This document shows positions 47,300 to 63,558 of a stretch of DNA of 64,000 nucleotides, in pieces. Origin of the DNA: a virus (lineage: Duplodnaviria > Caudoviricetes); the IMG/VR virus record IMGVR_UViG_3300028591_003923, positions 1 to 64,000 of that record; one strand, 5' to 3'. The position numbers and the translations under genes were made by a program. Numbering within the stretch: the first letter of the stretch is position 1; each line of letters starts with the position of its first letter. Below the pieces are notes generated by a model that did not search any database, had not been told where the DNA came from, and saw only the letters and a program-made list of their open reading frames with translations.

Positions 47300-47797
47300 A
47301 TGTCACAGTATTTAGAGTTTTATATTAGACATAACGATGATTATCTTCCAATTGCATCATATTGCGGTAGTTCCGCATATATGGAAATGTTTGATGATTA
47401 TGTTCCAAGTTATAGTGGACTTCGTACGGTCACTGAATCAATGCTGAGTTCGGTGCGCGCGGATGTTCAGCAGAAAATTAAGGAGAATGAACAGTGCATT
47501 AAAAGAGCTGAGAAACTGAAACAGGATATTCTCCAGGCTAATAACTCAATGGAAGAGAAAGTTGAATATATGGCAGGAGAAGACCAGGCTATAGAAGAAA
47601 CGGAAGATGAAAATAGGGCACTTGATAGTGTAGACCACTTCATTGATTTCCTTTATAATATACTTGAAGAAGCTGAATTCGGTGAGCATGAGGGAATACA
47701 GAAAGATAAGTATCTCTATGCGGGTGTAGAACCTGCGATTTGTAAAGACTACGATGAAATGACTCCAGAAGAAGTAAAGGAGGCGCGCGGATGGTAA
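47300..47797 (+). CDS. Hypothetical coiled-coil protein
   Basis: aaggag RBS; own promoter. Confidence 0.7.
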   Translation: MSQYLEFYIRHNDDYLPIASYCGSSAYMEMFDDYVPSYSGLRTVTESMLSSVRADVQQKIKENEQCIKRAEKLKQDILQANNSMEEKVEYMAGEDQAIEETEDENRALDSVDHFIDFLYNILEEAEFGEHEGIQKDKYLYAGVEPAICKDYDEMTPEEVKEARGW

Positions 47798-49005
47798 TAA
47801 ATAAAATGGACATGCACAAGAAACGTCAACGTGCACTCGCCCATGTAGAAAAAATAGCATGGATACGTCCAATAGAGGGCGCCGACAACATAGAACTTGT
47901 CGGTGTTCTTGGTTGGGTATGTATTGCTAAAATAGGTGAGTTTAAAGTTGGTGACTGGTGCGTTTATATTGAGATAGATTCTAAAGTGCCTGAAAAAGAG
48001 TGGTCTGAGTTTCTGCGCCCGAAGCACTTTAAGATTAAGACAATGAAGCTTGGTAAGTTTAAAGTTATCAGCCAGGGTATAGCACTGCCGCTCTCTACGT
48101 TTGACATAGACATACCGCAGGAAGAGGGTAAAGACGTTACGAAGCTGCTTGGGGTTAAGTATTCTGTAAGGGAAGATAACTTTAGAAAATCAGAAATAGA
48201 TAAGTATAAAGCTATGGCGCAGCGTAGACCTGACGTGTTCAAAAAACCGTGGGCGCGCAGAATGATGAAGAACCCAATTGGAAAACGTATCATGTTTTTA
48301 CTCTATGGTAAGAAACGTGATGACCAGAAAAAGTTTCCAAAGAAGTTCCAGTTCGTGCATCCGACCGATGAAGAAAGAATAGAGAACATGCCATGGATTC
48401 TTGATGACCGCGATGCTCGTTACATTAAAACAACGAAAATAGACGGTACTTCAACTACGTTCATTCTTGAAAAGAAACTGTTCGGTTACGAATTCTATGT
48501 GCTCTCGCGCAATGTACGTCAGTTCACACCAGAACAGGGCAACTATCATTCACAAGATGAAAATGTGTATTGGGAAGTTGCAGAAAAATATAACGTAAAG
48601 GATTTCCTTATGAACTTTATAAAAGGCGGTAACTACCGTTATGTAGCTCTGCAAGGAGAAACCTATGGTTGCACTGAAAAAGGTGTAAAAATACAGGGCG
48701 ACCCGCATCACATTGGTGAACTTAGATTCGCAGCCTTCAACCTCATTGATTCTAAAATTGGACGTTGGGATTCGGTAGAAGGGCGCAAATGGTGTTCTTC
48801 GTTTGGAATACCTTGGGTGCCAATTGTAGATACGAACTGCCAGGTTGAATCAGACATGGAAGCTTTCAAACTTACTGCCGATGGACCATGTGAAATACCA
48901 GGTTCAACGGGGCTGCGCGAAGGCTATGTTTATAGGAAAGTTGGTGACCCTAACTTTTCGTTTAAGAACGTGTCAAGGAAATATTTACTGAAACATGGAC
49001 AGTAG
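47791..49005 (+). CDS. RNA ligase (DRB0094-like family)
   Basis: N-terminal OB fold IEGADNIE..YIEIDS..SQGI; TDEERI, KIDGTS, QGE, FAAFN, EGYV, SFKNVS. Confidence 0.88.
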   Translation: MVINKMDMHKKRQRALAHVEKIAWIRPIEGADNIELVGVLGWVCIAKIGEFKVGDWCVYIEIDSKVPEKEWSEFLRPKHFKIKTMKLGKFKVISQGIALPLSTFDIDIPQEEGKDVTKLLGVKYSVREDNFRKSEIDKYKAMAQRRPDVFKKPWARRMMKNPIGKRIMFLLYGKKRDDQKKFPKKFQFVHPTDEERIENMPWILDDRDARYIKTTKIDGTSTTFILEKKLFGYEFYVLSRNVRQFTPEQGNYHSQDENVYWEVAEKYNVKDFLMNFIKGGNYRYVALQGETYGCTEKGVKIQGDPHHIGELRFAAFNLIDSKIGRWDSVEGRKWCSSFGIPWVPIVDTNCQVESDMEAFKLTADGPCEIPGSTGLREGYVYRKVGDPNFSFKNVSRKYLLKHGQ

Positions 49006-49023
49006 TCCATAGGGAGAATAATA

Positions 49024-49293
49024 ATGATTAATTGGAGAGATGCAAATAAGGAAAAGCCTAAGCTTCATAGAACTTCTTTTGAAGATGATGGAGAAACTAT
49101 TACATATGAAGAAAGTGATACCGTACTTATTAAGTGCGAGGTAGAAGACGAGGAAATGCCTTATAGTTTTGCCAGATATGAAATAGACCAGTTCGATGAT
49201 GGCGATAGATACTATTGGGTTGAAGAAGAAAGTGGATGGACTTATGACCTTGACGCAGTTATTGCATGGGCACCGCTAAGTGAGTTGGAGTAA
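49024..49293 (+). CDS. Small hypothetical protein (DUF551-like)
   Basis: W...KP N-terminus and VIAWAPL C-terminus. Confidence 0.55.
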   Translation: MINWRDANKEKPKLHRTSFEDDGETITYEESDTVLIKCEVEDEEMPYSFARYEIDQFDDGDRYYWVEEESGWTYDLDAVIAWAPLSELE

Positions 49294-49295
49294 AT

Positions 49296-49547
49296 ATGGA
49301 ATATAAATGGATAAAACCTACAGAATCGTTGCCTCCTCTTGTACTAGATAGTGACGTGTGGCAGGTTAGTCATAATGTATTAATTTGTACTGATAGTCTA
49401 AGTGGAAATTACCGTTATGAAATTGCTTTTTGCATGCATAGTGCAGATAAAACGGTGTGGTCAGACCCAATTTCTGGCTATGTAATTAGAAATGAAAATG
49501 TACGTTATTGGCGCGAGATTGAACCCGCGCCACGAACGGACGACTAG
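49296..49547 (+). CDS. Small hypothetical protein (DUF551-like)
   Basis: WIKPTESLP..V.YW.EIEPAP. Confidence 0.55.
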   Translation: MEYKWIKPTESLPPLVLDSDVWQVSHNVLICTDSLSGNYRYEIAFCMHSADKTVWSDPISGYVIRNENVRYWREIEPAPRTDD

Positions 49548-49710
49548 GAGATATATATAAAATGAATCATATGTTTTGGATAGGTGCGCTTGTAGGTACA
49601 GTGTTTGGAATAGTAGCTACAATGGTATTTGCTTGCTGCGCTATATCGTCTCGTATGTCACGAGAAGAAGAAAAAGCTGTACTAAAGCGAGAAATGGAAA
49701 GGAATAACTA

Positions 49711-50592
49711 ATGCAGAAATTTATAATGTGTTGTGGATTGCCAGCGTCAGGAAAAACATATTGGACAGTATATAAATGCATCGTAGAAGACGAAAATTTA
49801 GCTTTGCTTTCTTCTGATGGATTTCGTGAACTGCATCCAGAGTATGATAACAATGCAATCTTTGAATTAATGCACAAATATACAATAGAAAGCTTGGAAG
49901 CAGGGAAGACTGTAATTTACGATGCAACGAACCTGGCGCGCAAGCATAGGATGGCAATTTTGACAGAGGTAAAACGTAAGTTTCCTGCTGTGTTTTGCAG
50001 TATTGAAGTGTTCATGGCACCAATAAAGGTATTAAAGGAACGCAACTCGCATAGGACTGGCGCAGAGTGCGTACCGGATGAAGTTTTTCAGAAAATGCTG
50101 TGCAGCTTTCAGTTCCCACAGTTCTTTGAAGGCTGGGATGAGATTCATATGAACGAACATAACCAGTACCAGCTTGCTGATATGGCTAATGCGACTGACT
50201 TTGACCAGATGAATCCACATCATAAGCTTACCTTATGGGACCATTCGTCGAAGGCGCGTGAAATAATGAAAGACCACTACGGTGATGCAGTTATGCAAGA
50301 GGCAGCTTTCTTTCATGACTTGGGCAAACTCTATACTCAGACATTTGATGAGAACGGGGTCGCGCACTACTACGGTCACGAAAACGCAGGAGCATATATG
50401 TATGCACTCCATGCATTTGAGCTTGGACTTTACTCATTCAACGAGATATTAGACATACTGTTTTTAATCAACTACCATATGCGTCCATATCAATGGTCAA
50501 ACCGCACATTTCAGAAAGACCTGGAGTTATTCGGTGCAGATAAAATTAAAAAGTTAAAGTTAATTCACTTCTGCGATGAAGAAGCACATTAG
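49711..50592 (+). CDS. Polynucleotide kinase-like P-loop domain fused to an HD phosphohydrolase
   Basis: GLPASGKT, SSD, DATNL, ERN; H..LWDH..FHDLGK..HE..HM..D. Confidence 0.85.
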   Translation: MQKFIMCCGLPASGKTYWTVYKCIVEDENLALLSSDGFRELHPEYDNNAIFELMHKYTIESLEAGKTVIYDATNLARKHRMAILTEVKRKFPAVFCSIEVFMAPIKVLKERNSHRTGAECVPDEVFQKMLCSFQFPQFFEGWDEIHMNEHNQYQLADMANATDFDQMNPHHKLTLWDHSSKAREIMKDHYGDAVMQEAAFFHDLGKLYTQTFDENGVAHYYGHENAGAYMYALHAFELGLYSFNEILDILFLINYHMRPYQWSNRTFQKDLELFGADKIKKLKLIHFCDEEAH

Positions 50593-51879: not shown

Positions 51880-52113
51880 TTGCAGGATGAAAAAATTTAT
51901 AGAATCCTTAGAAAGCCTGAGGGTGGATATACTATTGAGTGGTCGTGGTCACATGGCGATGAATGGTATTGGTATGATGAAGCATATACACTTTGGGGAG
52001 CTAGAAGTAAGATTAGAAAATCAGAAAAAAAATTTGATGACCCATTTGTTGTAGGTGTATACAATAATAGGGGAGAAGAAATTGTTGAGGTTAATAAGCG
52101 GTTGAACTTTTAA
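51880..52113 (+). CDS. Hypothetical protein
   Basis: aggagg RBS with TTG start. Confidence 0.55.
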   Translation: MQDEKIYRILRKPEGGYTIEWSWSHGDEWYWYDEAYTLWGARSKIRKSEKKFDDPFVVGVYNNRGEEIVEVNKRLNF

Positions 52114-52129
52114 AGGAAGTTCAACCGTT

Positions 52130-53290
52130 TTTATTATACGTTGAAGGCGCGCGGTCGTAAAATTTTCCAAAAACCTGTATCAATTTTGGGAAAAATTATG
52201 GTGCGGGCGCAGAGTACGTAGATAATTTTGCAGAAAATATGGGACGGCCGCAGAGTACATAATATCGGGTACATATGGGCGTGTATAATTTTGTAGGATT
52301 TTCCAAAACGAAATATTTTCCAAAAACATAGTGGGCGCATATTTTTCCAAGAATTTCTGCGGTCTAAAATTTTCCAAAAAATTCCAAAATTCGGGTCTGA
52401 AAAAATTAAGAGAAACTTAAACTTTTTTCTACTTATAATCGTATTAAGAAAACTTATACATATAACGTATACGTATATAGTATATATATACGTATACGTT
52501 TTTCTTATACGTAAATAGGCAAACCCGCGAAGCGGGGGAATCGCGGAGGAAAGGGAACGCAAGCGGAGCGCGCGTTGCCGCATCCGTAGCAGGTTCGCTG
52601 AGTGTAGGCGCGAAGCGCCGGAACGGAAGCGAAACGCAGCTTCAACGGAAAACGTATACGTATATAGTATACGTATATAGGGTACGGTAAACCATGGATA
52701 TAAAAAATGGTCCGCGCGCAATGTACGGAAAACGGATACGCAAAAACGTATACGTATATAAGTAAGGTAAACGTATACGTATATAGGGTACGAAAATGTA
52801 GGGGAAGCGGAGGTAAGTAATTGTATAGGTTAAACGTATACAATAAACGTATACGTAAATAGGGCGTAGCGGTCTAGCTAATGCGGATAAGTAAAGCGGT
52901 GGCGTATACGGTAAAGGTAGCGGTAAACGTATACGTAAAGTAAGACTTAGTATGTTAAAGGGTGTTTAACGTACACGTCCAACGTATACGACTTATGTAC
53001 ATTAGGCTCCCATTTGTTGCCACGTGACGTGCAAGGACGGCAGATGTTGCGCATTAGGGGTCTGCAATAGGGGCAGTAGGCATAGGAACGGTATAATTCG
53101 TGGCAATAGGTGGTAGTAAGTGGAAATAAGTGAAAATAAGTGGCTGCCACAGCCATTGACAAAAATCAAATTTTTATTTAAAAAAATAAAAAATTTTTGA
53201 AAAAAACGTCCAACGTATACGAAAAACGTATACGTAAAGGGGTTCTCAACGTATAAGTTGAACGTATAAGTCCCTCTTCAGGCTTTCCGA
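52130..53290. repeat. Non-coding palindrome-rich region (about ten CGTATACG copies, GCGAAGC mini-hairpins); candidate origin or terminus
   Basis: aacgtatacg at about 52464, 52651, 52745, 52770, 52846, 52926, 52981, 53212, 53225; no credible ORF. Confidence 0.75.
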
Positions 53291-53356
53291 CGCTTCCGCG
53301 CCAATAAAAAAAGAACAGGTCTTCCGACCTGTCCCTTTGAAGAGGCTTTTCTTACA

Positions 53357-53698
53357 CTAGCAAGCGATGTAGCCTTTCTGCATTCCCTTGCCCTTAATTT
53401 TAACGTCCGTTACGTCCGCCTGTCCGTCCTTTACAGCCTGTCTGCACAGTGCTGAAGCCTTCTGAGTGGACACTCCCAGCTTCTCACCGACCATTGTAGC
53501 TGTCTGCGGCTCGTCAGTAAGGATTTCCGCAACAATCTTCTCAATCAGTGGAGCGTTCTCCTGAGCTTTCTTGGACACTCTCTCGCGTCTCTTAGCGTTT
53601 GCGGCGTCCATTTTCTTCAGCTCTTCACCTGCCATAGCCTGGATTTCCTCTGTCATTGTTCCGTTAACGATTGCTTCCATGAATTCTCTCTTAGTCAT
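53357..53698 (-). CDS. Winged-HTH-like small basic protein (paralogue 1)
   Basis: MTKREF..STQKASALCRQ..DVKIKGKG.QKGY. Confidence 0.8.
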   Translation of the reverse strand: MTKREFMEAIVNGTMTEEIQAMAGEELKKMDAANAKRRERVSKKAQENAPLIEKIVAEILTDEPQTATMVGEKLGVSTQKASALCRQAVKDGQADVTDVKIKGKGMQKGYIAC

Positions 53699-54027: not shown

Positions 54028-54170
54028 GCGCAGCTCCGAATTTCCTCCGATGAAGAGGGACAATCGCAGCTCCCCAAGCCTCTTCAGCGCAGCTCCCTCC
54101 GTGTGGAATAATCGCAGCTCGTCCGCGGCGTGTGGACGCAGCTCCCGCGCAGCTCCTTATCGCAGCTCCT
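54028..54170 (+). repeat. Seven direct repeats of CGCAGCTC
   Basis: Copies at about 54029, 54065, 54088, 54113, 54138, 54148, 54161. Confidence 0.85.
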
Positions 54171-54431
54171 GGACGGCCATTTATAACGGACGCTCCACGC
54201 GGCGTGGCTGCCGTCGGTGGACGCGAAACAACGACAGACTTCGTTTGTTAATTAACAAACAATCGGCGTACCGAACGGATGTTTGCTGGCAAAATCTGGA
54301 AAAGCTGGGAAAAACTGGAAATTTTTGACGTCTAAAGATTTGAATATTCTGAAAATTAGACGTATAACGTCTAAGATATGGCGTGACGTCTAAGGAAATA
54401 AAAACGGTTCATTTGAACCGTCTTTCTTTTT

Positions 54432-54647
54432 TTATATGGTGTAAAGGTCTGTTCCTTTGTATGGTTTAATTATTCCATTTTCTATCAATTCATTCCATAC
54501 CTTTTCAAGTTCTTCTTCTGTAAATGCTATATCTACATTTTTGAATCCGTTAATAAATGTTGCTTTTTTAAATGGAAGTCCTGCATGATTTGTTGTCCAT
54601 GTTATAACCGCTTTTGTAATTTTCAATTCTCTGATAATGTTAATCAT
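54432..54647 (-). CDS. Hypothetical protein
   Basis: MINIIRELK..; aaagga RBS. Confidence 0.55.
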   Translation of the reverse strand: MINIIRELKITKAVITWTTNHAGLPFKKATFINGFKNVDIAFTEEELEKVWNELIENGIIKPYKGTDLYTI

Positions 54648-54648
54648 T

Positions 54649-54855
54649 TTATTTTTTCCTTTCTGCAAGTCTGCGATTAATTTCTTTTTTAACGCTATCA
54701 TAAATATATCCACAATTATAATAATCACAACTATCATAACCCGCCATTATATCATCAAAAACTACTGCAAAGTTTTCTCCATTTTCTACGCAATGGCACA
54801 TTTCTTCTAAATCATCATCACAAATTGTAATTACTCCAGTGTATTCAAAGTCCAT
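54649..54855 (-). CDS. Hypothetical acidic protein
   Basis: aaggag RBS; own promoter. Confidence 0.65.
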   Translation of the reverse strand: MDFEYTGVITICDDDLEEMCHCVENGENFAVVFDDIMAGYDSCDYYNCGYIYDSVKKEINRRLAERKK

Positions 54856-54893
54856 TTTTTATTCTCCTTTCTTTTGATTACATTATTATTATA

Positions 54894-55076
54894 TCAGAAG
54901 TCTTTTAATTTGTCAAGTATTATTTGTTCTCTTTTTATGTTTTTATAAAGTCTATTTTCTTTACACCATAGACAAGAGCCATGATTTCTACAAGTACAGT
55001 CTATTGCTTTTGCTCCATAATATGGTTTTCTATGCTCTTTTTTGTGTTCAATTGCTTTGTCTAACATATCTATCAT
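54894..55076 (-). CDS. Small conserved phage protein (KEHRKPY..CRNHGSC..C)
   Basis: Zn-binding-like motif; aaggag RBS. Confidence 0.7.
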   Translation of the reverse strand: MIDMLDKAIEHKKEHRKPYYGAKAIDCTCRNHGSCLWCKENRLYKNIKREQIILDKLKDF

Positions 55077-55226
55077 CTCCTTACATTATTATTATATAGG
55101 AATTTTTATATATTGTCAAGTACTTTTTAAAAATATTTTGACGTCTAAGTTACATATAATTTAGACGTTTAACGTCTAAGAATGAGTACAAAAAAACGTG
55201 CTCCCATTTCGGGAGCACGCTCACCC

Positions 55227-55556
55227 TTACTTGGCACGCATCTTTTCGTCATGCTCAATTTTTTTGGCTTTCTCTTCGGCTTTCTTTTTTGCCTTGAGTT
55301 CTTTTTCCTTGAGTTTATGCTCGTAATCTTCGGCTTCGGCATAACCGTCAAATGGTTCTCTGCCTTTGTCTGCGCCAGTAGGAATTGTAATTGTAATTAC
55401 TGCCCACTTTTCGTCACCATTTTCATCAACGCAAGGGGTACAAATTGCATTAGATTTGTACTGTAAAATCTCATAATTATCTTTTGAAAAATATTCTTTG
55501 ATGAGTTCAAGAAAGCCCTGTCTGAGATTTTCATTTGCGATTTTGTTTGATACCAT
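55227..55556 (-). CDS. Hypothetical protein (paralogue of 58325-58657)
   Basis: EKW..PTGADKGREP.DGYAEAEDY.HKLKEKE. Confidence 0.8.
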   Translation of the reverse strand: MVSNKIANENLRQGFLELIKEYFSKDNYEILQYKSNAICTPCVDENGDEKWAVITITIPTGADKGREPFDGYAEAEDYEHKLKEKELKAKKKAEEKAKKIEHDEKMRAK

Positions 55557-55958
55557 ATATATCACTTCCTTTCAAGTATATGATACTACTTTTATAGTAT
55601 ATTGTCAAGTGTTTATAAATAAATTTCTTTTTCTTTTTCGTAAATTTCCATTTCTTCTACAATTATATTTCTTGAGATGCCCTCTTCGTCTGTAAAAACT
55701 TCAAAGTTTTCACAACCGTTTTTTACTGCCCATTCATATAATTCTTTAATTGTATTAATAATATGTGCCTTCATTTTTTTATTCTCCTTTCATTTTCTAT
55801 ATATATTATATAGGATAGAATTGTATTTGTCAACAACTATTTTGACGTCTAAAGAAAAATTTTTTATAACTTAGACGTTTAACGTCTAAGGCGGCCGCGC
55901 GGTTAGACGTCAAAAAAAGTATAAAATAAAAGCGGTTTTATGTAAACCGCCTTATTTT

Positions 55959-56627
55959 TTATTTAAAACATTTTCTTCTCATTTTTTTATGCTGTGCCAT
56001 ACAATGAGCGAATATCTCCTTTTCAATTAATACATCTTCAAGTCCTGTGTGACTTTCGTCAAAGTTTTCTTGTCCTGTGATATATCTATAAAGTATTTCT
56101 GCGGTTGCACGCACCTGTCCATTTTTACAAATATATCCGTTGTCTTTCGCCCATTGTTTATACATTTTTTGTTTGCATATTGTGTCCTGTGCCATTTTCA
56201 GAGTATCCCATAAAATTGTACCGTATGGGAGAAAATATCTATATTTTGATTTTGTTAAATATCTCTGTGTTGTTGCGGTTGACTTGTAGTCAAATCTTGC
56301 GTTGTGTGCAATAAGAATATTTATGTTATATTCTTTACAAATGTTATAAATATAATTTTTAATTGTTGCCCACCTTGCGACTTTGCGCTGTCCTGTTTTT
56401 ATTTGTTCTTCATAGCGTGGAATTTTTTCGGCATAATACGCTGATTTCATCAAGTCTTTCATTTTATAAAAGACTTCATAATTAACGAATGAAAAGGTGT
56501 GATATACATTTCCTTTTTTGTCTACTACCGCACCGCCTATGTCGTAAACGATAGGGTCATCCATTGAGTTGGTTGTTTCTGTATCAAATACTAAATAATA
56601 AGTTTTTCTTCTGTCAATTTTTTCCAT
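55959..56627 (-). CDS. DEDDh 3'-5' exonuclease (paralogue 1)
   Basis: FDTETT, AHNARFD, HTGLED. Confidence 0.85.
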   Translation of the reverse strand: MEKIDRRKTYYLVFDTETTNSMDDPIVYDIGGAVVDKKGNVYHTFSFVNYEVFYKMKDLMKSAYYAEKIPRYEEQIKTGQRKVARWATIKNYIYNICKEYNINILIAHNARFDYKSTATTQRYLTKSKYRYFLPYGTILWDTLKMAQDTICKQKMYKQWAKDNGYICKNGQVRATAEILYRYITGQENFDESHTGLEDVLIEKEIFAHCMAQHKKMRRKCFK

Positions 56628-56842
56628 TATTTTTTCTTCCTTTCTGTCCTCTTCAAGGACAATATTATAATATCATATTTTGATATAGTTGTCAACATAT
56701 TTTTTGTTGATTTTGACGTCTAAGTTTTAAAAACTTAGACGTTTAACGTCTAAGAATATAAGGCGCGCCTTATCTAGAAGGCGCGAGCGTGAAGAGGATA
56801 CATGCGAGCATGAGCAAGGCGCGAGCAATTGTAATTTCCATT

Positions 56843-57022
56843 TTATTCTCCTTTTGCATTTTTTGCACTTTTAAATTTAAATCGTTCTTTAATCCAGAAC
56901 TTTTTACCACATTCAGAACATTCTACTTCTACATCGGCAGTTACAGAATCTCCTTCGTAATCATAACCCTCGATAAAGATAACTTCATAATCTTCACATT
57001 TACATTTTGGACATCTAACCAT
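56843..57022 (-). CDS. 59-aa zinc-ribbon protein (below ORF-track cutoff)
   Basis: MVRCPKC..ECSECGKKF; aaggag RBS. Confidence 0.7.
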   Translation of the reverse strand: MVRCPKCKCEDYEVIFIEGYDYEGDSVTADVEVECSECGKKFWIKERFKFKSAKNAKGE

Positions 57023-57205
57023 TTTTTTTATCTCCTTTCTTATTACACTATTATAATATCATATTAATATATCTGTGTCAAATACTTTTTTATAAAATAA
57101 GAAAATTTTTGACGTCTAATGTCTGGAATTTAACTTAGACGTTTAACGTCTAAACTTTTCTCAAAAAAACGAGCACACCTTTCGGTGTACTCGCGCGGTA
57201 GAAAG

Positions 57206-57535
57206 TTACTCTGCGATGAAGTAACCCTTCTGAGTTCCCTTCCCCTTGACCTTGACGTCCGTAACCTTGACGTCCATCTGTCTGAGAAGTGCGCTCGCCT
57301 TCTGTGTTGAGATTTCAACCAACTTGGCGATTGTGCTCGCTGTCATTGGCTCTGTTGTCAGAACCTTTGCGATTTCTGCCTTGATTGGCTCGTTGGCAAG
57401 TGCTGTCTTGCTTGGACGCTCTGCTCTCTTTGCGTTGCGCCTGTCAAGAGATTCAATTTCCTTCTGTGCGAAGTCCTTCATCTCCTGTGATTCTACCATT
57501 GCGATAACGTTCTCCATGAATTCTCTCTTTGTCAT
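57206..57535 (-). CDS. Winged-HTH-like small basic protein (paralogue 2)
   Basis: MTKREF..STQKASALLRQ..DVKVKGKGTQKGY. Confidence 0.8.
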   Translation of the reverse strand: MTKREFMENVIAMVESQEMKDFAQKEIESLDRRNAKRAERPSKTALANEPIKAEIAKVLTTEPMTASTIAKLVEISTQKASALLRQMDVKVTDVKVKGKGTQKGYFIAE

Positions 57536-57972
57536 TGTAAGTACCTTTCCTTTCTTTTTTTTCTTTTCTTTAACTTACATATACATTTTATCATATGTTT
57601 TTTATGTTGTCAAGGGATTTTTTAAAGTTTTCCGCAAATTCTTTAAATATTTCTGAAGCAAGATTTTTGGTTTGTCCATGCGTCTTGGTTTTCCGTTCTT
57701 TTTGCTCTCCCTTGGAACAATTATATTGTATCACGTTTCCGTGATATTGTCAAGAGGAAATTTCTTCTTTTTTGAAATAAATTTCAAAACCGACCTCCGA
57801 CCACTCTACTTCTTTCCTCTTGACAAGTATATATTACTACAACTATTATATAATGTCAACCCCTTTTAATAAAATTTTATCTATATTTTTAAAATTTTTG
57901 ACGTCTAAGATTAAAAGGAACTTTTAGACGTTTAACGTCTAAAGAAAAAAGGACGCATGCGCGTCCTCTACA

Positions 57973-58128
57973 TTAATAGTCTTTTGTTATACCTATAAGA
58001 CAAATTATTTTTTCTGATATTTCTGTCGCGGCAATTTCACAACCATCGCTATCATTAATGGCAACCATTACTTTTGCATTAGGACTATATTCTTTTAATT
58101 CTTCGATGAGTTCTGCTACTGTTATCAT
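57973..58128 (-). CDS. Small hypothetical protein
   Basis: MITVAELIEELK; own promoter and terminator. Confidence 0.6.
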   Translation of the reverse strand: MITVAELIEELKEYSPNAKVMVAINDSDGCEIAATEISEKIICLIGITKDY

Positions 58129-58324
58129 TTTTCTACCTTCTTTCTGCTCCCCTTGGAACAATTATATTATAACACTTTCAAAGTGAATGTCAACACTTTT
58201 TAAAAATTATTTTGACGTCTAATTTATTTAATTTTGGATTAGACGTTTAACGTCTAAAGCGGACGGCCGCCTTAGACGTCAAAAAATGCTTAAAAAAAGA
58301 ACAGACTTTCGTCTGTTCTCTTTT

Positions 58325-58657
58325 TTACTTTTGTTCACGCATCTTTTTATCGTGTTCAATTTTTTTTTCTTTTTCGGCTTTCTTTTTCTCTGCCTTAATT
58401 TCCTTTTCTTTCAACTTGTGAGCATAGTCCTCTGCCTCTGCATAACCGTCATAAGGCTCGCGACCTTTATCTGCTCCCGTTGGAACTTTTACAGTGAGCA
58501 CAATCCATTTTTCGTTGTCCTCTTCATCAATTACGGGAATTGCAATCTCATTAGATTTTACCCGCAGAACCTCTTCATTTTCTTTGAAGAAATTGGTAAT
58601 AGTTTCAAGATAAGTTTCTCTTAATCTTTCGTTAAGTACTCTGTTTGAAAGTGCCAT
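58325..58657 (-). CDS. Hypothetical protein (paralogue of 55227-55556)
   Basis: Near-identical central motif; aaggag RBS. Confidence 0.8.
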   Translation of the reverse strand: MALSNRVLNERLRETYLETITNFFKENEEVLRVKSNEIAIPVIDEEDNEKWIVLTVKVPTGADKGREPYDGYAEAEDYAHKLKEKEIKAEKKKAEKEKKIEHDKKMREQK

Positions 58658-58728
58658 AATTTTTTCTCCTTTCTTATTTTCTATATATATTATATCACAA
58701 ATTTTTAATTTTGTCAAATTATTTTTTC

Positions 58729-58971
58729 TTAAGAAATTATACCACCAAGAAGTTTTATAGCGAGCAAGCCACAAGTAATGGCAAGACATGAACAGTCTTT
58801 GACTTTATCCGCAAGCGGACGTTTGAGCACGAACGTGCGAGCAACCGCGCACACATTAGCGGTAAGATATATGCACTGTCCGATAATAAAGTTACTGCCT
58901 ACTGTACACTGTCCGATAATAAGACATATAAGAACAAAATAATTAAGTGTTTCAAAAATTTTTTCTTTCAT
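58729..58971 (-). CDS. Small membrane protein
   Basis: Three hydrophobic segments. Confidence 0.65.
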   Translation of the reverse strand: MKEKIFETLNYFVLICLIIGQCTVGSNFIIGQCIYLTANVCAVARTFVLKRPLADKVKDCSCLAITCGLLAIKLLGGIIS

Positions 58972-59154
58972 TGTTTTACTTCCTTTCTTTTCCTTTTGTA
59001 ATTAAATTATATATTATTAAAATATGTTTGTCAAGTATTATTTTTTAAAAATGACGTCTAATGTTTTGTTAATCTTAGACGTTTAACGTCTAAACATTTC
59101 CCCAACAAAAAACCGTCACATTTCTGTGACGGTTTCCGTGACGGTTAGCAAAGT

Positions 59155-59496
59155 CTATGCAACCTTGTACCCTTTCTGAGTACCCTTACCCTTTACCTTT
59201 ACATCTGTTACAGTGAGCGTACCATCTGTAACCATCTGTCTGCAAAGAGCACTGACTTTCTGTGTGGTGAGTTCAAGACCCTTTCCGATTTCGCTTGCAA
59301 CGGTGAAGTCCTTTCCATTAAGGAAGTCAAGGATGTTTGTTTTAATTGGCTCGTTTTCAATTGCTTTCTTTGATGGCTGATTTGCTCTCTTTGCGTTTCT
59401 TGCATCAAGTTTTGCAATTGCATTTGTTGCATGTTCCATCATTTCGTCATTGATAATTCCATTCATAACGTTTTCAAAAAATTCTCTGTTTGTCAT
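59155..59496 (-). CDS. Winged-HTH-like small basic protein (paralogue 3)
   Basis: MTNREF..TTQKVSALCRQ..DVKVKGKGTQKGY. Confidence 0.8.
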   Translation of the reverse strand: MTNREFFENVMNGIINDEMMEHATNAIAKLDARNAKRANQPSKKAIENEPIKTNILDFLNGKDFTVASEIGKGLELTTQKVSALCRQMVTDGTLTVTDVKVKGKGTQKGYKVA

Positions 59497-59907
59497 AATT
59501 TTACCTACTTTCTTGCGTTGGTCGCAACCCTTTTTAATTTTACTTTTGGGAGTTCCTTTTGTCTCCCTTTACCTTACATTTATATTGTAGCAAACTTTTT
59601 TAAGTTTGTCAATATCTTTTTTAGATTTTTTTAAAAAAGTTTTTCGAGTGCGCACTCCATAAGTTCTGACACTTTAGTAGTCACGGATTAGTTTTTCCTC
59701 TATTCACTGGGGAGTACCCTTTTTCTCTCTCCCTTGGAACAATTATATTATATCACTTTGAATATATAAGTCAATACCTTTTTTAATTTTGAAGAGGATT
59801 TTTTGACGTCTAATTTATTTAATTTTGGGTTTAGACGTTTAACGTCTAAGTCAACCGCGCGCCTTAGACGTCAAAAATTCTAAAAAAATAAGGGGAATTT
59901 CTCCCCT

Positions 59908-60657
59908 TTATTTAATGATAATCGTATCTTTACTTTTTAATATTCGGTAACTTTTGCAAGAAATTTCCAAAAGTTTTTCTTTATCGTGTAATATTGTGAG
60001 AATTTTGGAAGTTTCTCTAACTATACTTCTTTTTATAGGATAATTTCCAAAAATTTCTGCGCCTCTGTTTAAAGTTTCAAAAAGAATTTGTGTTTCTATT
60101 AAACTATCACTTAATGCGGTATGGTCTTCGATAAAGTCTATATTATCGGAAATATATTGCATCACTGTTTCTGCGGTGGTAGAATAATTACCACTTTCTG
60201 TAAATCTTTCGTTATCTTCGCAAAACTTTTTATATTCATTATCAATAATAAATTGATGAACAAAACCCCTTATATCTTTTATTTCTACATCATCAAATGG
60301 ATTATTGCATTTAAACCAATCGCAATTGAAATCGAAAACTTTTTCATCAAACTTACAATTATAGGCAAATGCGCATTCTACTTCAAACTTTTTAAAATCT
60401 CTTATCATTTTCTGGCAAATGTAACCAAATTTTTCCATTTTGGTTTCTTTTGCTCTCATTGCTTTAACATAAATCGGTCTTTTTTCTGCGTAATATGCGG
60501 AAGCAAAGCACATTTTATTATGCCAAACTTGTTCTACAACAAAATCTTTTTGGGAAAGAATTTGTTCTGTTTCTACGTTAGCAATTACATAACCAATATT
60601 ATAACAAAAAGGTTTATCAAGTGAAGTGGTTTCTGTGTCAAAAATTACAATATTCAT
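59908..60657 (-). CDS. DEDDh 3'-5' exonuclease (paralogue 2)
   Basis: FDTETT, AYNCKFD, HTALSD; shares SAYYAEK with paralogue 1. Confidence 0.85.
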   Translation of the reverse strand: MNIVIFDTETTSLDKPFCYNIGYVIANVETEQILSQKDFVVEQVWHNKMCFASAYYAEKRPIYVKAMRAKETKMEKFGYICQKMIRDFKKFEVECAFAYNCKFDEKVFDFNCDWFKCNNPFDDVEIKDIRGFVHQFIIDNEYKKFCEDNERFTESGNYSTTAETVMQYISDNIDFIEDHTALSDSLIETQILFETLNRGAEIFGNYPIKRSIVRETSKILTILHDKEKLLEISCKSYRILKSKDTIIIK

Positions 60658-60826
60658 TCTATATTCTCCTTTCCTTTTGACTACATATATTATATAGGAT
60701 AGAAGTTACTTTGTCAAGACTTTTAGGAAAAAATCGAAAGATTTTTTGACGTCTAAACTGAAGAGGAACTTATTTTAGACGTTTAACGTCTAAGATACGT
60801 TGAGTGCGCGAACTCAACCGGCGCAC

Positions 60827-60976
60827 TCAACGAAGGAGGAAAAGGAATATATTAAAAGAACTGTATTGCGGATTTTCAGTAAGATTTTTTAGGATAATTT
60901 CTATCCAAGAAAAACCTATCCATAAAAGTAATAAACAATTTATAAGAATTATTATTTTCCAAATTATATTTTTCAT
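60827..60976 (-). CDS. 49-aa membrane peptide
   Basis: MKNIIWKIIILINCLLLLWIGFSWIEI..; own promoter. Confidence 0.55.
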   Translation of the reverse strand: MKNIIWKIIILINCLLLLWIGFSWIEIILKNLTENPQYSSFNIFLFLLR

Positions 60977-61149
60977 TTTGCCATACCCCCTTGACAATTA
61001 TATTATAACACTTTGAAGAGGAAAGTCAAGTGTTTTTTTAAAAAAGTTATAGGAATTTATTTAGACGTTAAACGTCTAAGCAAAATCTTTTCGGAAATAA
61101 TCCGAAAAGATTTTGAAAAGATGAGGTAAATAAAAGTGATTTTTTACAA

Positions 61150-61350
61150 TTAATCATTTTTTGCTTGTCTGAAGAGGCAAGACAATAGGAACATTACTAT
61201 CCATAAAAGAAGTACCCATTTCCATGTAAAAGTTATTCCAACAATTTTACACACTGCGAATACTATTAGCGCATCGATACCAAATTCTATGATATTAGCG
61301 ATAATTAATGTTGCGATTATTGCAATTATTGTTTTCCCTGTTTTATTCAT
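61150..61350 (-). CDS. Small membrane protein
   Basis: Two hydrophobic helices; aaagga RBS. Confidence 0.65.
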   Translation of the reverse strand: MNKTGKTIIAIIATLIIANIIEFGIDALIVFAVCKIVGITFTWKWVLLLWIVMFLLSCLFRQAKND

Positions 61351-61513
61351 TGTTTTTACTTCCTTTCTGTTCTCCCTTGGAACAATTATATATTACCATA
61401 TCATATACGTAATGTCAATAGATAAATTAAAAAAAGATAAATTTATTTGACGTCTAAGTTTGAAGAGGGACTTAGACGTTTAACGTCTAAAATAAAAAGG
61501 TTAAAAACAACCG

Positions 61514-61966
61514 CTATGCGATTGCTTTTAACGTATCAATTATATTATTTACATTATATGCTTTACCTTTCCATTCTGTTCTGTTTTTTTCTTCGTCATC
61601 GAATAATATTCCTTGTGGTATATTTACAATACTTGACTTTGGTGTTCCATATGATACTATATGTATTTCGTCAAATGTTACGCTTTTAAGATGTTTATTT
61701 AGCCATTTAAGTTTTGCGTTTGTTACTGCTTTATCATATTCAATGTTTGAGCCTTTTGATAGCCAGCTGACTATGCCCAGCTTGTAGCCTTTACGTTGTA
61801 GCTGATTAAGCAGGCGCGCCAGGTGCGACAGGTGCAAAAGTGCAGGAGCCAGCTCGTATGGTGTAGGGTCATAGCTCCGTAACATATCAAGCCACCCTTT
61901 GACACCGTAAAGGTCAGCAATAGTGCCGTCCATATCAAAATATATTGCTTTTCCAGTTTCTTCCAT
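61514..61966 (-). CDS. HAD-superfamily phosphatase (5'(3')-deoxyribonucleotidase-like)
   Basis: FDMDGT, SW, K, LFDD. Confidence 0.8.
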   Translation of the reverse strand: MEETGKAIYFDMDGTIADLYGVKGWLDMLRSYDPTPYELAPALLHLSHLARLLNQLQRKGYKLGIVSWLSKGSNIEYDKAVTNAKLKWLNKHLKSVTFDEIHIVSYGTPKSSIVNIPQGILFDDEEKNRTEWKGKAYNVNNIIDTLKAIA

Positions 61967-62082
61967 TTGGTTTTCTCTCCTTTCCTTCACTGTACCTATA
62001 TTATAGCACTTCATCACGTAGAAGTAAAACGTCTAATATTAACATTAAGGCAAGTTTTTGACGTCTAAGATTTTAATCAAAT

Positions 62083-62275
62083 ACTTTAGTACTTTAAAAC
62101 TTTAACGCATTAAAGTATTAACACTTTAATGCGTTAAAGCACTAAAGTATTTTTGACGTCTAAGATTAGACGTCTGACGTCTAAGGTTTAATGCTTTAAC
62201 GCATTAAAGTATTAAAATAAGTTTGACGTCTAAGATTTTAACGCTTTAAAACTTTAGTGCATTAAAGTGCCAAAG
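62083..62275. repeat. 8-bp-period degenerate tandem repeat (e.g. actttaaa, gcattaaa)
   Basis: actttagt|actttaaa|actttaac|gcattaaa|gtattaac|actttaat|gcgttaaa|gcactaaa; three tracts separated by GACGTCTAA boxes. Confidence 0.8.
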
Positions 62276-62306
62276 CAAAAAAAAGAACGGACGTTTGTCC
62301 GCTCTT

Positions 62307-62585
62307 TTACCACTCCATTATTGTTTTTAACTGAGACATTATGTCACGTGCTGTATGTTGTTTGTAGGCGTTATGTGCAAGGGTATTTATATATATACCA
62401 TCGTGTTTGTTATCAGCGTGTACGCTCAGCACCTTATTATTATAGTGTACGTGTATAGCGCTGTATTTATAGCGGTCTACCCACTCACAAGTAACGTGTA
62501 CTAAGTTATACGCTCTGATGTCACATAGCATTACATAAAGCTCGTTAAGCTCGTGCTCATTATCTAATTTATTATATTTAATCAT
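62307..62585 (-). CDS. Hypothetical protein
   Basis: MIKYNKLD..; gaggag RBS. Confidence 0.6.
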   Translation of the reverse strand: MIKYNKLDNEHELNELYVMLCDIRAYNLVHVTCEWVDRYKYSAIHVHYNNKVLSVHADNKHDGIYINTLAHNAYKQHTARDIMSQLKTIMEW

Positions 62586-62649: not shown

Positions 62650-63087
62650 TTAGTGGCAAGCTTTGAACTGTTCAAGCGTTTCAAACTGTTCAAGCAAGCT
62701 TGCGAACAGTGTGCTTTTGCGTTTGCTGTTCTTGTATGACTGTATGGCTCTTACAGTCGCGCCGTTTGTAGCTCGTTTCATTCTAATTAAGCCACAAGTA
62801 TCAAGCACGTTGATAAACTGTTCTACTGTGAGCACGTGCGCACGTTCAGGCGCATTGTAGTCGGTTTTATTATCCATTGTATAGATAATATAATCATTTG
62901 AATTGATATTGTTGTTTATTTCACCGCAATTTGACTTAATCTCAATTGTTAAACCGTGATATTTTACGTCATGCTTACCTTTTGCGCTAACTCTGTTGAC
63001 ATTTCCTTTGTTTCCGTTCAAATAATGCTTTACAGCCTTTTCAAATTCTTTCCCGAAAAATCCGCTATCATTCTTTTTAATTTCCAT
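62650..63087 (-). CDS. PD-(D/E)XK nuclease-like protein
   Basis: GKEFE..D.....IEIKS. Confidence 0.55.
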   Translation of the reverse strand: MEIKKNDSGFFGKEFEKAVKHYLNGNKGNVNRVSAKGKHDVKYHGLTIEIKSNCGEINNNINSNDYIIYTMDNKTDYNAPERAHVLTVEQFINVLDTCGLIRMKRATNGATVRAIQSYKNSKRKSTLFASLLEQFETLEQFKACH

Positions 63088-63558
63088 TGTTTTTACCTTT
63101 CCTTTCCTTTCCTTAACTATTGCCTTGAATAGGTTAGTTTATTCAACCGGACTTATTTATTAATTTGTCTATGTCCTTTTGACAATAACAATATATCAGA
63201 TATAAAAACACTTGTAAAGCGTTTTTTAACATTTTTCTTGTTTTGACGTCTATTTTTTTTATTTTGACGGCTAAAAAATCATAAAGGGGGTATATTCTAC
63301 TACATGTAGTGGTATACCAAAAAAGCTATACCATATATAGTGATTCAAATCTTTTTGAGAAAATTATGTATATTTATACATTTTAAAAACGTTGAAATTT
63401 CAACGTTTCTGGAATCTATTCATTTTACAGTTTCCAAAAACGTTGAAATTTCAACGTTTAGGGGCGGTACTATACAGGAAGTTTATACATTTTTGTGTAT
63501 AAATATACGCCGGCCTGCTACATTATCTCCACGAAATTAAAAATTCAATCCCCGAAAT

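Follow-up and report, generated by a model that had tools for sequence, protein, structure and literature searches.

A lineage-specific palindromic element as a probable tag of early-gene cassettes in an uncultured gut phage

Introduction

Promoter-early stem-loop (PeSL) cassettes have been described in the T4-type phages RB49/phi1 and others (Arbiol et al. 2010, PMC2839356; Comeau et al. 2014, PMC4122927). The array studied here resembles them in its dense small early genes with functions unknown, in the composite of a stem-loop terminator plus a strong host-type promoter that precedes each of them, and in differing between relatives by whole units, with exchange in the repeated intergenic element that can here be followed at base level. 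A second related system is SPBRE of the Bacillus prophage SPbeta, with its master repressor MrpR (YopR) (Kohm et al. 2023, PMC10516654). There too, many genes of a Firmicute phage share one short conserved element at their promoters. SPBRE was known from in silico prediction for a long time before its binder came to light, and MrpR is a tyrosine recombinase fold reused for DNA binding, which parallels the nuclease-fold candidate described below; no MrpR-like protein was identified in the studied phage. The third is the phi29 regulator p4 at promoters A2c/A2b/A3 (review, PMC3100819; p4 site, PMC1904284), whose inverted-repeat site likewise precedes the -35 and occupies a defined face of the helix.

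The array lies in the complete 129,514-bp (129.5 kb) genome of an uncultured ~130-kb gut phage, which is long-tailed (tape measure of 3534 aa) and has Clostridia-type hosts. A first-pass annotation of the window, i.e. the whole 64-kb stretch analyzed, had proposed that the repeated element is either an integron-like recombination site or an operator that switches off the whole module. We consider it probable, though far from assured, that the element is a lineage-specific tag of promoter-carrying early-gene cassettes, combining a candidate protein site with a recombination joint.

Distribution of the element

The window holds 49 TTAGACGT boxes, compared to 1.9 expected, and 45 of the 52 boxes in the whole 129,514-bp genome lie within 54.3–62.3 kb. 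A search of the whole genome found no palindrome outside this interval, which extends to its full length the earlier observation that none occurs beyond about 54–63 kb. Thirteen palindromes are present in the array: 11 perfect copies of TTAGACGTT-W-AACGTCTAA, the TAT-centred copy at 54356 and a variant at 62166. The first-pass annotation had listed twelve 19-bp copies, including the TAT-centred one and an inverted one at 61061; all were found on recounting and only the total was short, the variant having been left uncounted. Palindrome-to-palindrome distances are 286–944 bp, in agreement with the 290–940-bp modules described earlier. The reported third box, box 3 (TTAGACGTCA), indeed accompanies 11 palindromes, 11–20 nt past each on the minus strand, and is missing from the 61061 palindrome, whose centre base is flipped. 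The fourth box is found at four elements, as had been stated, upstream and inverted at three (59864, 58272 and 55903) and in direct orientation at the 54356 element. Across the studied phage and 10 or more other viral contigs (32–46% GC), none of the 16 arm positions varies, and the three centre bases vary freely from genome to genome. No end repeats occur in the phage record, and the array lies in its interior.

Organization of the array

All features described here are on the minus strand. The array starts with the head gene (62650..63087), whose 145-aa product has a PD-(D/E)xK (restriction-endonuclease-like) fold; a box-like ATAGACGTCAAAA is located upstream of its promoter, at ~63250. The second gene of U0 (62307..62585) is a 92-aa ORF with no function assigned. 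The U0|U1 element (62154..62184) consists of the variant palindrome TTAGACGT-CAG-ACGTCTAA (62166–62184) and an adjoining TTAGACGTCA box, inside a gene-free control region (62020–62306). More boxes in this region (62226, 62061 and 62029) alternate with ACTTTAA-N4-TTAAAGT palindromes. U1 encodes a HAD/NT5C-type nucleotidase (61514..61966), the gene most widely common to these arrays.

The U1|U2 element (61390..61490) comprises a palindrome (61472–61490), box 3 (61448–61457) and, 31 nt beyond box 3, a promoter (-35 TTGACA, 61413–61418; -10, 61390–61395). At U2|U3 (61002..61079), the flipped-centre palindrome (61061–61079), without box 3, precedes a promoter with -35 TTGACT (61024–61029) and -10 at 61002–61007. 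U3|U4 (60689..60793) has its palindrome at 60775–60793, box 3 at 60747–60756 and, again after 31 nt, a promoter with 12/12 matches (-35, 60712–60717; -10, 60689–60694). U4 encodes a DEDDh-type 3'-5' exonuclease (59908..60657; 249 aa, phrog_20187). The U4|U5 element (59747..59873) runs from box 4 (59864–59873) through a GC-rich spacer to the palindrome (59831–59849) and box 3 (59804–59813), with the -35 (59769–59774; -10, 59747–59752) 31 nt further on. U5, with winged-helix paralogue b (59155..59496; 113 aa), is followed by the U5|U6 element (59006..59093; palindrome 59075–59093, box 3 59052–59061), where 19 nt separate box 3 from the -35 (59029–59034; -10, 59006–59011). Paralogue b of the 'PTGADKGREP' family (58325..58657; 110 aa) in U6 has its own box-less promoter (58717). 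At U6|U7 (58166..58281), box 4 (58272–58281), palindrome (58239–58257) and box 3 (58213–58222) precede the promoter (-35, 58188–58193; -10, 58166–58171), with 21 nt between box 3 and the -35.

The longest spacer, 41 nt, occurs at U7|U8 (57831..57942; palindrome 57924–57942, box 3 57899–57908, -35 57854–57859, -10 57831–57836). Two more promoters without a box (57753 and 57613) lie between this promoter and the U8 gene for winged-helix paralogue a (57206..57535; 109 aa), which has a PadR/ArsR-like winged helix in its AlphaFold model. U8|U9 (57053..57153; palindrome 57135–57153, box 3 57110–57119) has a 30-nt spacer to its -35 (57076–57081; -10, 57053–57058). The U9 unit (56770..57022) contains a 59-aa zinc-ribbon ORF (56843–57022) and a short hydrophobic ORF, and is bordered by U9|U10 (56667..56753; palindrome 56735–56753, box 3 56714–56723), with 20 nt to the -35 (56690–56695; -10, 56667–56672). 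U10 encodes the exonuclease paralogue of U4 (55959..56627; 222 aa, phrog_20187, with a weak RNase_T match). At U10|U11 (55805..55912), box 4 (55903–55912), palindrome (55871–55889) and box 3 (55843–55852) lead after only 11 nt to the -35 (55828–55833; -10, 55805–55810). U11 carries 'PTGADKGREP' paralogue a (55227..55556; 109 aa), with a box-less promoter at 55608, and ends at U11|U12 (55091..55179; palindrome 55161–55179, box 3 55139–55148; 21 nt to the -35 at 55114–55119; -10, 55091–55096). U12 (54432..55067) consists of three small ORFs (Cys-rich 57 aa, 68 aa and 71 aa). The last element, U12|U13 (54326..54393), has a direct box (54386–54393), the TAT-centred palindrome (54356–54374) and box 3 (54326–54335), with no good promoter downstream. 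It adjoins a GAGCTGCG repeat block, and winged-helix paralogue c (53357..53698; 113 aa) is encoded directly past the element. The three paralogues, previously proposed as possible binders, are genuine winged-helix proteins, but their recognition helices showed no tracking of the palindrome.

Promoter spacing and the predicted binding site

A program scan yielded 66 promoter-like sites (36 expected) and 30 terminator-like sites (6 expected). The order of terminator, palindrome and host-type promoter (TTGACA-17-TATAAT) noted in the first pass recurs at each palindrome on the minus strand, the promoter-poor last element being the exception, and the promoter hexamers match at 10–12 of 12 positions, many with an extended TG. 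This layout does not cover every promoter, however, since 6 of the 13 strong array promoters lack the box (58717, 59612, 57753, 57613, 55608 and 54916). The element thus tags the first promoter after a terminator, rather than each promoter, and follows unit borders as much as promoters. Shut-off of the whole module by the element alone is therefore impossible.

The spacing to the promoter supports the operator proposal. The box 3 to -35 spacers of the studied phage (11, 19, 20, 21, 21, 30, 31, 31, 31 and 41 nt) have a 10-bp periodicity with a Rayleigh R of 0.92, reached by 2 of 100,000 random spacer sets, although such steps could partly stem from whole A-tract spacer units. Among the relatives, 150 of 170 palindromes end 7–10 nt (usually 9) before a good -35, and the distances of the remainder are grouped at 18–21 and 27–31 nt. 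In most relatives, the palindrome itself occupies the -63 to -45 stretch. In the studied phage, this phased place is taken by the half-site box 3; the full palindrome is 11–20 nt further upstream and, with these variable gaps, is unphased to box 3 or the -35.

We infer from these features that the palindrome is a protein-binding site. Two 8-bp TTAGACGT half-sites with three free bases between them would suit a symmetric dimer, which is predicted to sit on one helix face directly upstream of the first sigma-A host-type promoter of each transcription unit. As these promoters are near consensus, a bound protein would most likely damp, shut off or insulate early transcription, with activation less likely.

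Unit exchange among related phages

Many related phages have arrays of 5–37 palindromes, with TTAGACGT-N3-ACGTCTAA or the variants TTAGATGT and TTAGGTGT. The arms fall into only three discrete types (ACGT, ATGT and GTGT), which are mixed in no single genome. When mapped unit by unit, 19 contigs that share the triple-box design show units deleted, inserted, replaced and reordered; U12, for example, is replaced or split in L293 and L300, and the whole U9 unit is missing at the same place in L291 and L297. The homology blocks of close relatives begin at the outer palindrome edge. The clearest case is the 400-bp single-unit indel relative to L297, whose left and right joints are the U8|U9 and U9|U10 elements. 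L297 aligns as far as the palindrome at the U8|U9 joint and from the palindrome on at the U9|U10 joint, placing the crossover inside the palindrome. The earlier suggestion of cassette shuffling is thus supported by differences in content and order and by one clean indel. The same 19–21 bp stand in direct order at every unit border, and these comparisons show them to be the crossover point for the deletion, insertion, replacement and reordering of whole units among relatives.

The head protein

The best candidate partner of the palindrome is the 145-aa product of the head gene (62650–63087), which the first-pass annotation had overlooked. All top fold matches of its confident structure model (pLDDT 90.8) are to PD-(D/E)xK nucleases: NhoI (Z 7.4), I-Ssp6803I (Z 6.2) and Hjc (Z 5.2–5.9). 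The active-site residues D40, (E/D)49 and K51 (D40, E49 and K51 in the studied phage) are conserved in 37 homologues, a motif that suits cutting as well as binding. The family heads ACGT, ATGT and GTGT arrays and, among the genomes and loci searched, was found only in palindrome-bearing phages, being absent from five complete relatives without palindromes and 75 loci without arrays; matches in two ATGT genomes are weak (E 0.004–0.01). Phages with the identical ACGT palindrome have head proteins only ~25% identical, and a head protein at 58% identity belongs to an ATGT array. Thus, protein and site do not simply co-vary.

Alternative explanations

The palindrome could instead be the target of the head protein acting as a site-specific endonuclease that nicks or cuts at unit borders, an explanation we regard as unlikely, though credible. 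The cuts would start recombination, cassette exchange between relatives during co-infection, or break-primed replication, and the promoter distance would be passed on together with the cassette, not maintained by selection. The motif in all 37 homologues, the resemblance to restriction and homing endonucleases and Holliday-junction resolvases, the restriction of the protein to palindrome-bearing genomes, the crossover within the palindrome and the boxes at unit borders rather than at all promoters are consistent with such an enzyme. The centre triplet is also homogenized within some genomes (TAA in 34 of 36 copies of L054), as frequent inter-copy exchange predicts. However, if the enzyme cut 13 sites of its own genome, these would have to be protected or repaired by some scheme, and none was seen; nor does inheritance alone explain 10-bp-step spacers with diverging sequence. 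In addition, 19–21 bp of direct-repeat identity would be the preferred crossover even if no enzyme took part, as has been suggested for PeSLs (PMC2839356).

A conserved protein of the Clostridia hosts as the binder, for instance a nucleoid protein or global regulator with which the phage boosts or times early transcription, is distinctly less probable. The half-site is identical across phages of 32–46% GC with very diverged proteins, and a whole-genome profile (tblastn, 1e-4) found no ORF exclusive to array-bearing genomes. Host factors are used in the group, as the early promoters of the closest backbone relatives, G014 and G015 (~56% protein identity), carry host LexA-like boxes; yet these two phages lack the palindrome entirely. 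The three unmixed, lineage-specific site variants fit a phage-encoded partner better. In bacterial genomes, arrays occur only on short contigs (2–44 kb) that are most likely mis-binned phage, and single hits are near the chance level (~140 for 16 fixed bases in 596 Gb, by our own arithmetic).

We find it doubtful in the extreme that the palindrome has no dedicated partner and is a passive hairpin or upstream promoter DNA of a terminator–promoter composite, kept uniform by inter-copy recombination. T4-type PeSLs are composites needing no specific binding protein (PMC2839356), and the palindrome can form a hairpin (8-bp stem, 3-nt loop), four copies being caught by the terminator scan (56754, 57943, 57135 and 55179). 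Nevertheless, a hairpin would permit compensatory changes, whereas the arms are invariant across distant genomes apart from three variants; GC-rich terminators already lie upstream of the palindromes, which are not within the downstream transcript.

An integron-like system, with the palindromes as att sites of a dedicated site-specific recombinase, is largely refuted and verges on the negligible: the cassette layout and cassette-level mosaicism fit, but the complete 129.5-kb genome has no Phage_integrase or Resolvase match (positive controls were detected), each cassette has its own promoter and terminator, and the short, perfect 19-bp palindrome differs from an imperfect attC-type repeat. The first-pass remark that no recombinase is visible therefore holds for tyrosine and serine recombinases in the full genome, while its integron analogy is not supported. 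RecT is also absent from the phage genome.

Comparison with known systems

The preferred reading, a tag that is both candidate protein site and recombination joint, has partial precedents. In the stoperators of cluster A mycobacteriophages (L5 gp71) and the KorB operators of plasmid RK2, one regulator serves many copies of one short site over a gene block, as here. Stoperators are asymmetric and lie inside transcribed DNA of temperate phages, and KorB operators are at widely varied distances from promoters; to our knowledge, neither is a cassette joint. The p4 protein of phi29, bound upstream, represses strong early promoters via RNA polymerase contact. By analogy, we propose p4-style upstream repression as the likeliest mechanism at the strong promoters of the array. 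The site sequence and protein are unrelated, however, and p4 acts in one compact control region with an RNA polymerase contact, compared to a dozen unit borders and a mode of action predicted from sequence here. SPBRE differs as a 15-bp motif at ~10 dispersed promoters that serves lysogeny maintenance in a temperate phage, in contrast to 13 tandem unit borders in 8 kb, a strict palindrome and a genome without integrase or resolvase.

We infer that the array is made of PeSL-like cassettes, rather than being an integron. PeSL phages are T4-type myoviruses, unlike the long-tailed phage with Clostridia-type hosts studied here, and what is conserved in their cassettes is the promoter, together with an AT-rich stretch and a stem-loop of varying position, without a separate invariant palindromic box. 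The present array adds a 16-base-specific palindrome, phased to the -35, with three lineage variants and one co-occurring nuclease-fold gene.

Organization of the array

The phage record (129,514 bp) is rated complete by CheckV and has no end repeats, and the array lies internally, at 54-62 of 129.5 kb. The genome is that of a large tailed phage with a 3534-aa tape measure protein (PhageMin_Tail). It encodes the alpha subunit of DNA polymerase III, a ligase, an RNA ligase with a kinase/HD protein, and nine tRNAs, and both its ribosome-binding sites and its promoters are of the Firmicute type. The RNA ligase, which contains an OB-fold domain, lies near the kinase/HD-domain protein (49711-50592) in the region 47791-50592, and the two look like a tRNA-repair pair beside the tRNA cluster.

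The box TTAGACGT occurs 49 times in the window, compared to 1.9 copies expected, and 45 of the 52 copies in the whole genome are located within 54.3-62.3 kb. No palindrome was found outside this interval in the whole 129.5-kb genome. Within it are 11 perfect TTAGACGTT-W-AACGTCTAA palindromes, one copy with a TAT center, and a 13th, variant copy at 62166. On the minus strand, a unit begins with a GC-rich terminator, an upstream box (four cases) and the palindrome, followed by 11-20 nt of free sequence, the third box (TTAGACGTCAAAA, box 3), an AT-rich spacer, a TTGACA-16/17-TATAAT promoter (commonly with an extended TG), a ribosome-binding site and one to three small ORFs. Tool scans recovered 66 promoter-like sites (36 expected) and 30 terminator-like sites (6 expected), and each unit corresponds to one terminator-promoter pair. 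The initial description of repeated boxes that punctuate terminator-promoter units is borne out by the 49 copies and 13 palindromes, except that six strong promoters within the array are without boxes. The element is a tag of the first promoter after a terminator, not of all promoters.

Other repeats surround these units. Upstream of the HAD gene, several ACTTTAA-N4-TTAAAGT palindromes are interspersed among five TTAGACGTCA boxes in a control region without genes (62020-62306). They resemble operators of a second type, placed at the array head; the ACTTTAA palindrome recurs in contigs L016/L022 and L056 and in the relative G015. A third type of site, the palindrome AAACGTTGAAATTTCAACGTTT, is present twice (63390-63470) in the intergenic DNA from which the head gene and the rightward genes diverge, in the layout of a classic switch region. 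Two or three tandem strong promoters, with leaders of ∼100-150 nt between them, precede the winged-helix genes (57585-57860 and 59584-59775), and the leader ATAATTGTTCCAAGGGAGA, directly after the -10 hexamer, is common to several units. Beyond the array, a gene-free stretch of ∼1.2 kb (52100-53300) carries at least 15 AAACGTATACG and five ATTTTCCAAAAAC repeats, and a block adjoining the last element (54040-54180) carries seven GAGCTGCG repeats. A replication origin or a site for packaging may be located here, and in G015 a TATACGT-N3-ACGTATA cluster occupies the syntenic position past the early region.

Distribution and variants of the palindrome

A scan of viral contigs matched the exact palindrome in 12 contigs. 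When the center triplet was left free, these contigs were found to carry 5-24 copies of TTAGACGT-NNN-ACGTCTAA per array, each directly after a terminator and shortly before a -35 hexamer. A search through the shared HAD nucleotidase recruited 78 further loci, and a de novo palindrome count identified two sister variants, TTAGATGT-N3-ACATCTAA (up to 37 copies) and TTAGGTGT-N3-ACACCTAA (25 copies). Arm variants are never mixed inside one genome. The arms are constant across genomes of 32-46% GC, while the center varies between genomes. Invariant arms with a free center fit recognition by a symmetric dimer and not a hairpin, whose arms could change in a compensatory way. In some genomes the center is homogenized (TAA in 10 of 13 copies here and in 34 of 36 in contig L054), which points to exchange between copies.

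The triple-box design, a peculiarity of this lineage, recurred on 25 contigs from metagenomes. Arrays of the same element are also carried by short contigs from ruminant guts binned with Clostridia/Eubacteriales. A nucleotide search returned no close relative among deposited phage genomes, and the string TTAGACGT in papers matched only unrelated primers. Several contigs of CPR bacteria (L163, L171, L194, L197, L202, L228, L234 and others; Giovannonibacteria, Nealsonbacteria and Saccharibacteria) have several copies per genome of a perfect palindrome, TTAGACGTC-S-GACGTCTAA, that is extended by complementary flanks and in some copies lies within long ORFs. It has the same core but is apparently an unrelated hairpin element that occurs as a repeat. 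In several relatives with the ACGT palindrome (L005, L008, L011 and L012), the rightward late-type genes adjoining the array form long frames only when TAG is read through (the longest frame of L012 is 165 aa in the standard code versus 601 aa with TAG read), whereas the present phage, L007 and L014 use the standard code.

The closest relatives by shared genes, G014 and G015 (173 and 132 shared ORFs, ∼56% identity), lack the TTAG palindrome, though their early regions are syntenic. Instead, 8-bp palindromes rich in GC (GCCCGGGC or GGCCGGCC) accompany their early promoters, 45-60 nt upstream, alongside LexA-like boxes (CGAACATACGTTCG). These early regions are located at positions of about 31-40 kb in G014 and about 97-108 kb in G015; tandem GTTAGTTGMAACTAAC repeats are further present at 93.6 and 96.6 kb of the latter genome. 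The head gene of both relatives encodes a different protein of 153-156 aa with a similar GxxFE...D...QxK motif. Homology of this protein to the head family of the present phage was rejected (hhalign probability 8.6%), the likeness being at the motif level only. As both tag and head gene differ in these genomes, the two seem to have been swapped together between lineages, which we regard as a lead rather than a result.

Coupling of the element to the promoter

Of 170 non-redundant palindromes in relatives, 150 stop 7-10 nt (mode 9) short of a good -35 hexamer, and the remainder lie 18-21 and 27-31 nt from it. With the usual promoter geometry, the palindrome in these genomes would cover about -63 to -45. 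In the present phage, it is box 3, not the full palindrome, that holds a phased place: its distances to the -35 hexamer are 11, 19, 20, 21, 21, 30, 31, 31, 31 and 41 nt, with a Rayleigh R of 0.92 at 10 bp that was reached by 2 of 100,000 random spacer sets. The full palindrome shows no phasing to box 3. Since the promoter hexamers match the consensus at 10-12 of 12 positions, we infer that the role of a bound protein would be negative or insulating, rather than activating. The p4 protein of phi29 acts from upstream on strong early promoters. The action proposed for the element would resemble that of upstream p4 at such promoters (PMC3100819).

The element as a joint between units

Several gene families of the array (the HAD nucleotidase, two DEDDh exonucleases, the winged-helix family and a 110-aa family) recur in relatives in changed order and number. 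In close relatives of other lineages, homology blocks begin at the outer edge of the palindrome. A BLAST HSP-end statistic against distant relatives gave only weak enrichment at the palindrome (0.11 versus 0.05), as it is coding similarity that sets the ends of BLAST blocks. The joints were examined through unit maps and a junction alignment instead. For the maps, 19 triple-box contigs were cut at their palindromes and each piece was matched to the 14 units (U0-U13) of the present phage. The pieces correspond to single units or to novel ones, with replacements at U2, U7 and U12, a split of U6 by an extra palindrome, a unit inserted between U11 and U12, and scrambled orders. In contig L297, U10 directly follows U8. 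Its sequence aligns with the U8|U9 joint of the present phage up to the palindrome and with the U9|U10 joint from the palindrome onward, which indicates that a 400-bp unit was gained or lost via a crossover inside 21 identical bases. These alignments identify the element, at base resolution, as the recombination joint of the units.

Candidate partners of the element

The head protein (145 aa; 62650-63087, minus strand), the product of the first gene of the array, had no match in sequence searches of Pfam, NCBIfam and PDB, and one sub-threshold match in PHROGs (phrog_244, E 0.0017). Its predicted structure has a pLDDT of 90.8. The 17 best VIA matches of the model are all PD-(D/E)xK enzymes, with middling Z-scores of 4.1-7.4, and include the restriction endonucleases NhoI, HhaI, MspI, HinP1I and PvuII, the homing endonuclease I-Ssp6803I, Hjc resolvases and MutH. 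Foldseek returned nothing below 1e-3, and the nearest named ESM cluster is PDDEXK_16. Across 37 homologues, the catalytic D...(D/E)-x-K motif keeps Asp40 and Lys51 without exception, with Glu or Asp at position 49. The protein is predicted to have a restriction-endonuclease-like α/β core, which on the modeled fold places it in the PD-(D/E)xK superfamily. The head family leads eight ACGT arrays, three ATGT arrays (58-61% identity to an ACGT-type member) and the arrays of both GTGT genomes, and was not found in five complete palindrome-free relatives or at 75 array-free loci. These observations make the head protein a better candidate binder than the winged-helix paralogues. The candidacy has weak points: two ATGT genomes gave weak matches only, proteins serving the identical ACGT site are only ∼25% identical, and the gene could simply happen to be the first of the early genes. 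The intact motif, moreover, suits a cutter as well as a binder. The main rival explanation takes up this last point and makes the palindrome the target of a nuclease; we consider it unlikely.

The three winged-helix paralogues (109-113 aa), suggested for binding assays in the first-pass annotation, have a genuine winged-helix fold (model pLDDT 86.8, PadR/ArsR-like matches), but the comparisons argue against them as binders. The family is present at 59 array-free loci, and its recognition helix does not track the palindrome: it is unchanged in G014 and G015, both without the TTAG palindrome, and differs in L010-L012, which carry the identical palindrome. A whole-genome profile of seven complete or near-complete relatives found no ORF of the present phage that occurs in at least two array-bearing genomes and is missing from all four array-free ones (tblastn 1e-4); the head family was missed because it is too diverged for this threshold. 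A host regulon found no support, as the bacterial genome scan gave at least 120 matches compared to ∼140 by chance on our own arithmetic, and the multi-copy CPR matches are a different, longer palindrome. An N4-type hairpin promoter for a virion RNA polymerase, prompted by the geometry of an 8-bp stem and 3-nt loop, is dismissed since the 3534-aa ORF is the tape measure protein and a host-type promoter follows every element.

Functional implications

Shuffling of cassettes and operator control had been offered as alternatives for the element; each is partly right, given the unit indels at the palindrome in relatives and the promoter-phased boxes. On balance, we lean toward the element being both a promoter-coupled putative binding site and the recombination joint of PeSL-like cassettes. 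A bolder extension, which we hold to be quite improbable, is that the array and head gene would form a self-contained phage cassette system, in which a small protein of restriction-endonuclease fold would recognize a lineage-specific palindromic tag at each border between units and, acting at this single site, both control early transcription and promote the programmed swapping of cassettes, with their promoters, between related phages. Were this true, the system would be a functional counterpart of integrons with a nuclease in place of the integrase, and the GGCCGGCC/GCCCGGGC-tagged relatives, whose other head protein has a similar motif, would be sister systems.

Most genes without known function in large phages, many counter-defense genes among them, reside in the early (“host-takeover”) regions, whose control and fast turnover are poorly understood outside T4-type phages. 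Here, a family of abundant gut/rumen phages bears a simple, searchable tag on every early unit, which the alignments resolve to the base as the joint for unit swaps and which points to one candidate protein. Confirmation of this partner would allow early-gene cassettes to be recognized straight from metagenome data, and the control of a whole early programme could be examined through a single protein and a 19-bp site. As a compact regulatory part, this pair may also find use in Firmicutes.

Comparison with known systems

The suggested analogy with integrons is not supported. An integron would have IntI beside the array, and none is present here: no tyrosine recombinase (PF00589; controls matched 14 of 14) and no serine recombinase or resolvase was matched in the whole 129.5-kb genome, and RecT was not found in the genome. 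Integron cassettes are promoterless and share one common promoter, whereas each unit here has a near-consensus promoter and a terminator. The attC sites are long imperfect inverted repeats of variable sequence, in contrast to the perfect, invariant 19-bp palindrome.

The arrays resemble the operators of master repressors (SPBRE/MrpR and the L5 stoperators) in that one short site is present at many phage promoters; this phage has 13 sites and its relatives have 5-37, almost every one next to a promoter. Those systems have a cognate phage-encoded repressor, for which the PD-(D/E)xK head protein that co-occurs with the site is a candidate. They belong to temperate phages, in which the sites maintain lysogeny. 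A temperate lifestyle is not evident here: the genome matched no integrase or resolvase, and the arrays in bacterial genome bins are confined to contigs of 2-44 kb, though the phage could conceivably be a non-integrating prophage. In having a cluster of small early genes, each with its own promoter and terminator, the array is also like the host-takeover module of SPO1-like phages, which is located in a long terminal repeat.

The gain and loss of units at the joint match the behavior described for the PeSL cassettes of T4-type phages (PMC2839356; PMC4122927), a further trait of which is excised mini-circles with one unit each. As in those cassettes, a composite of a stem-loop terminator and a strong host-type early promoter is repeated in a block of small genes, and relatives differ by indels and replacements that end in the repeated element.
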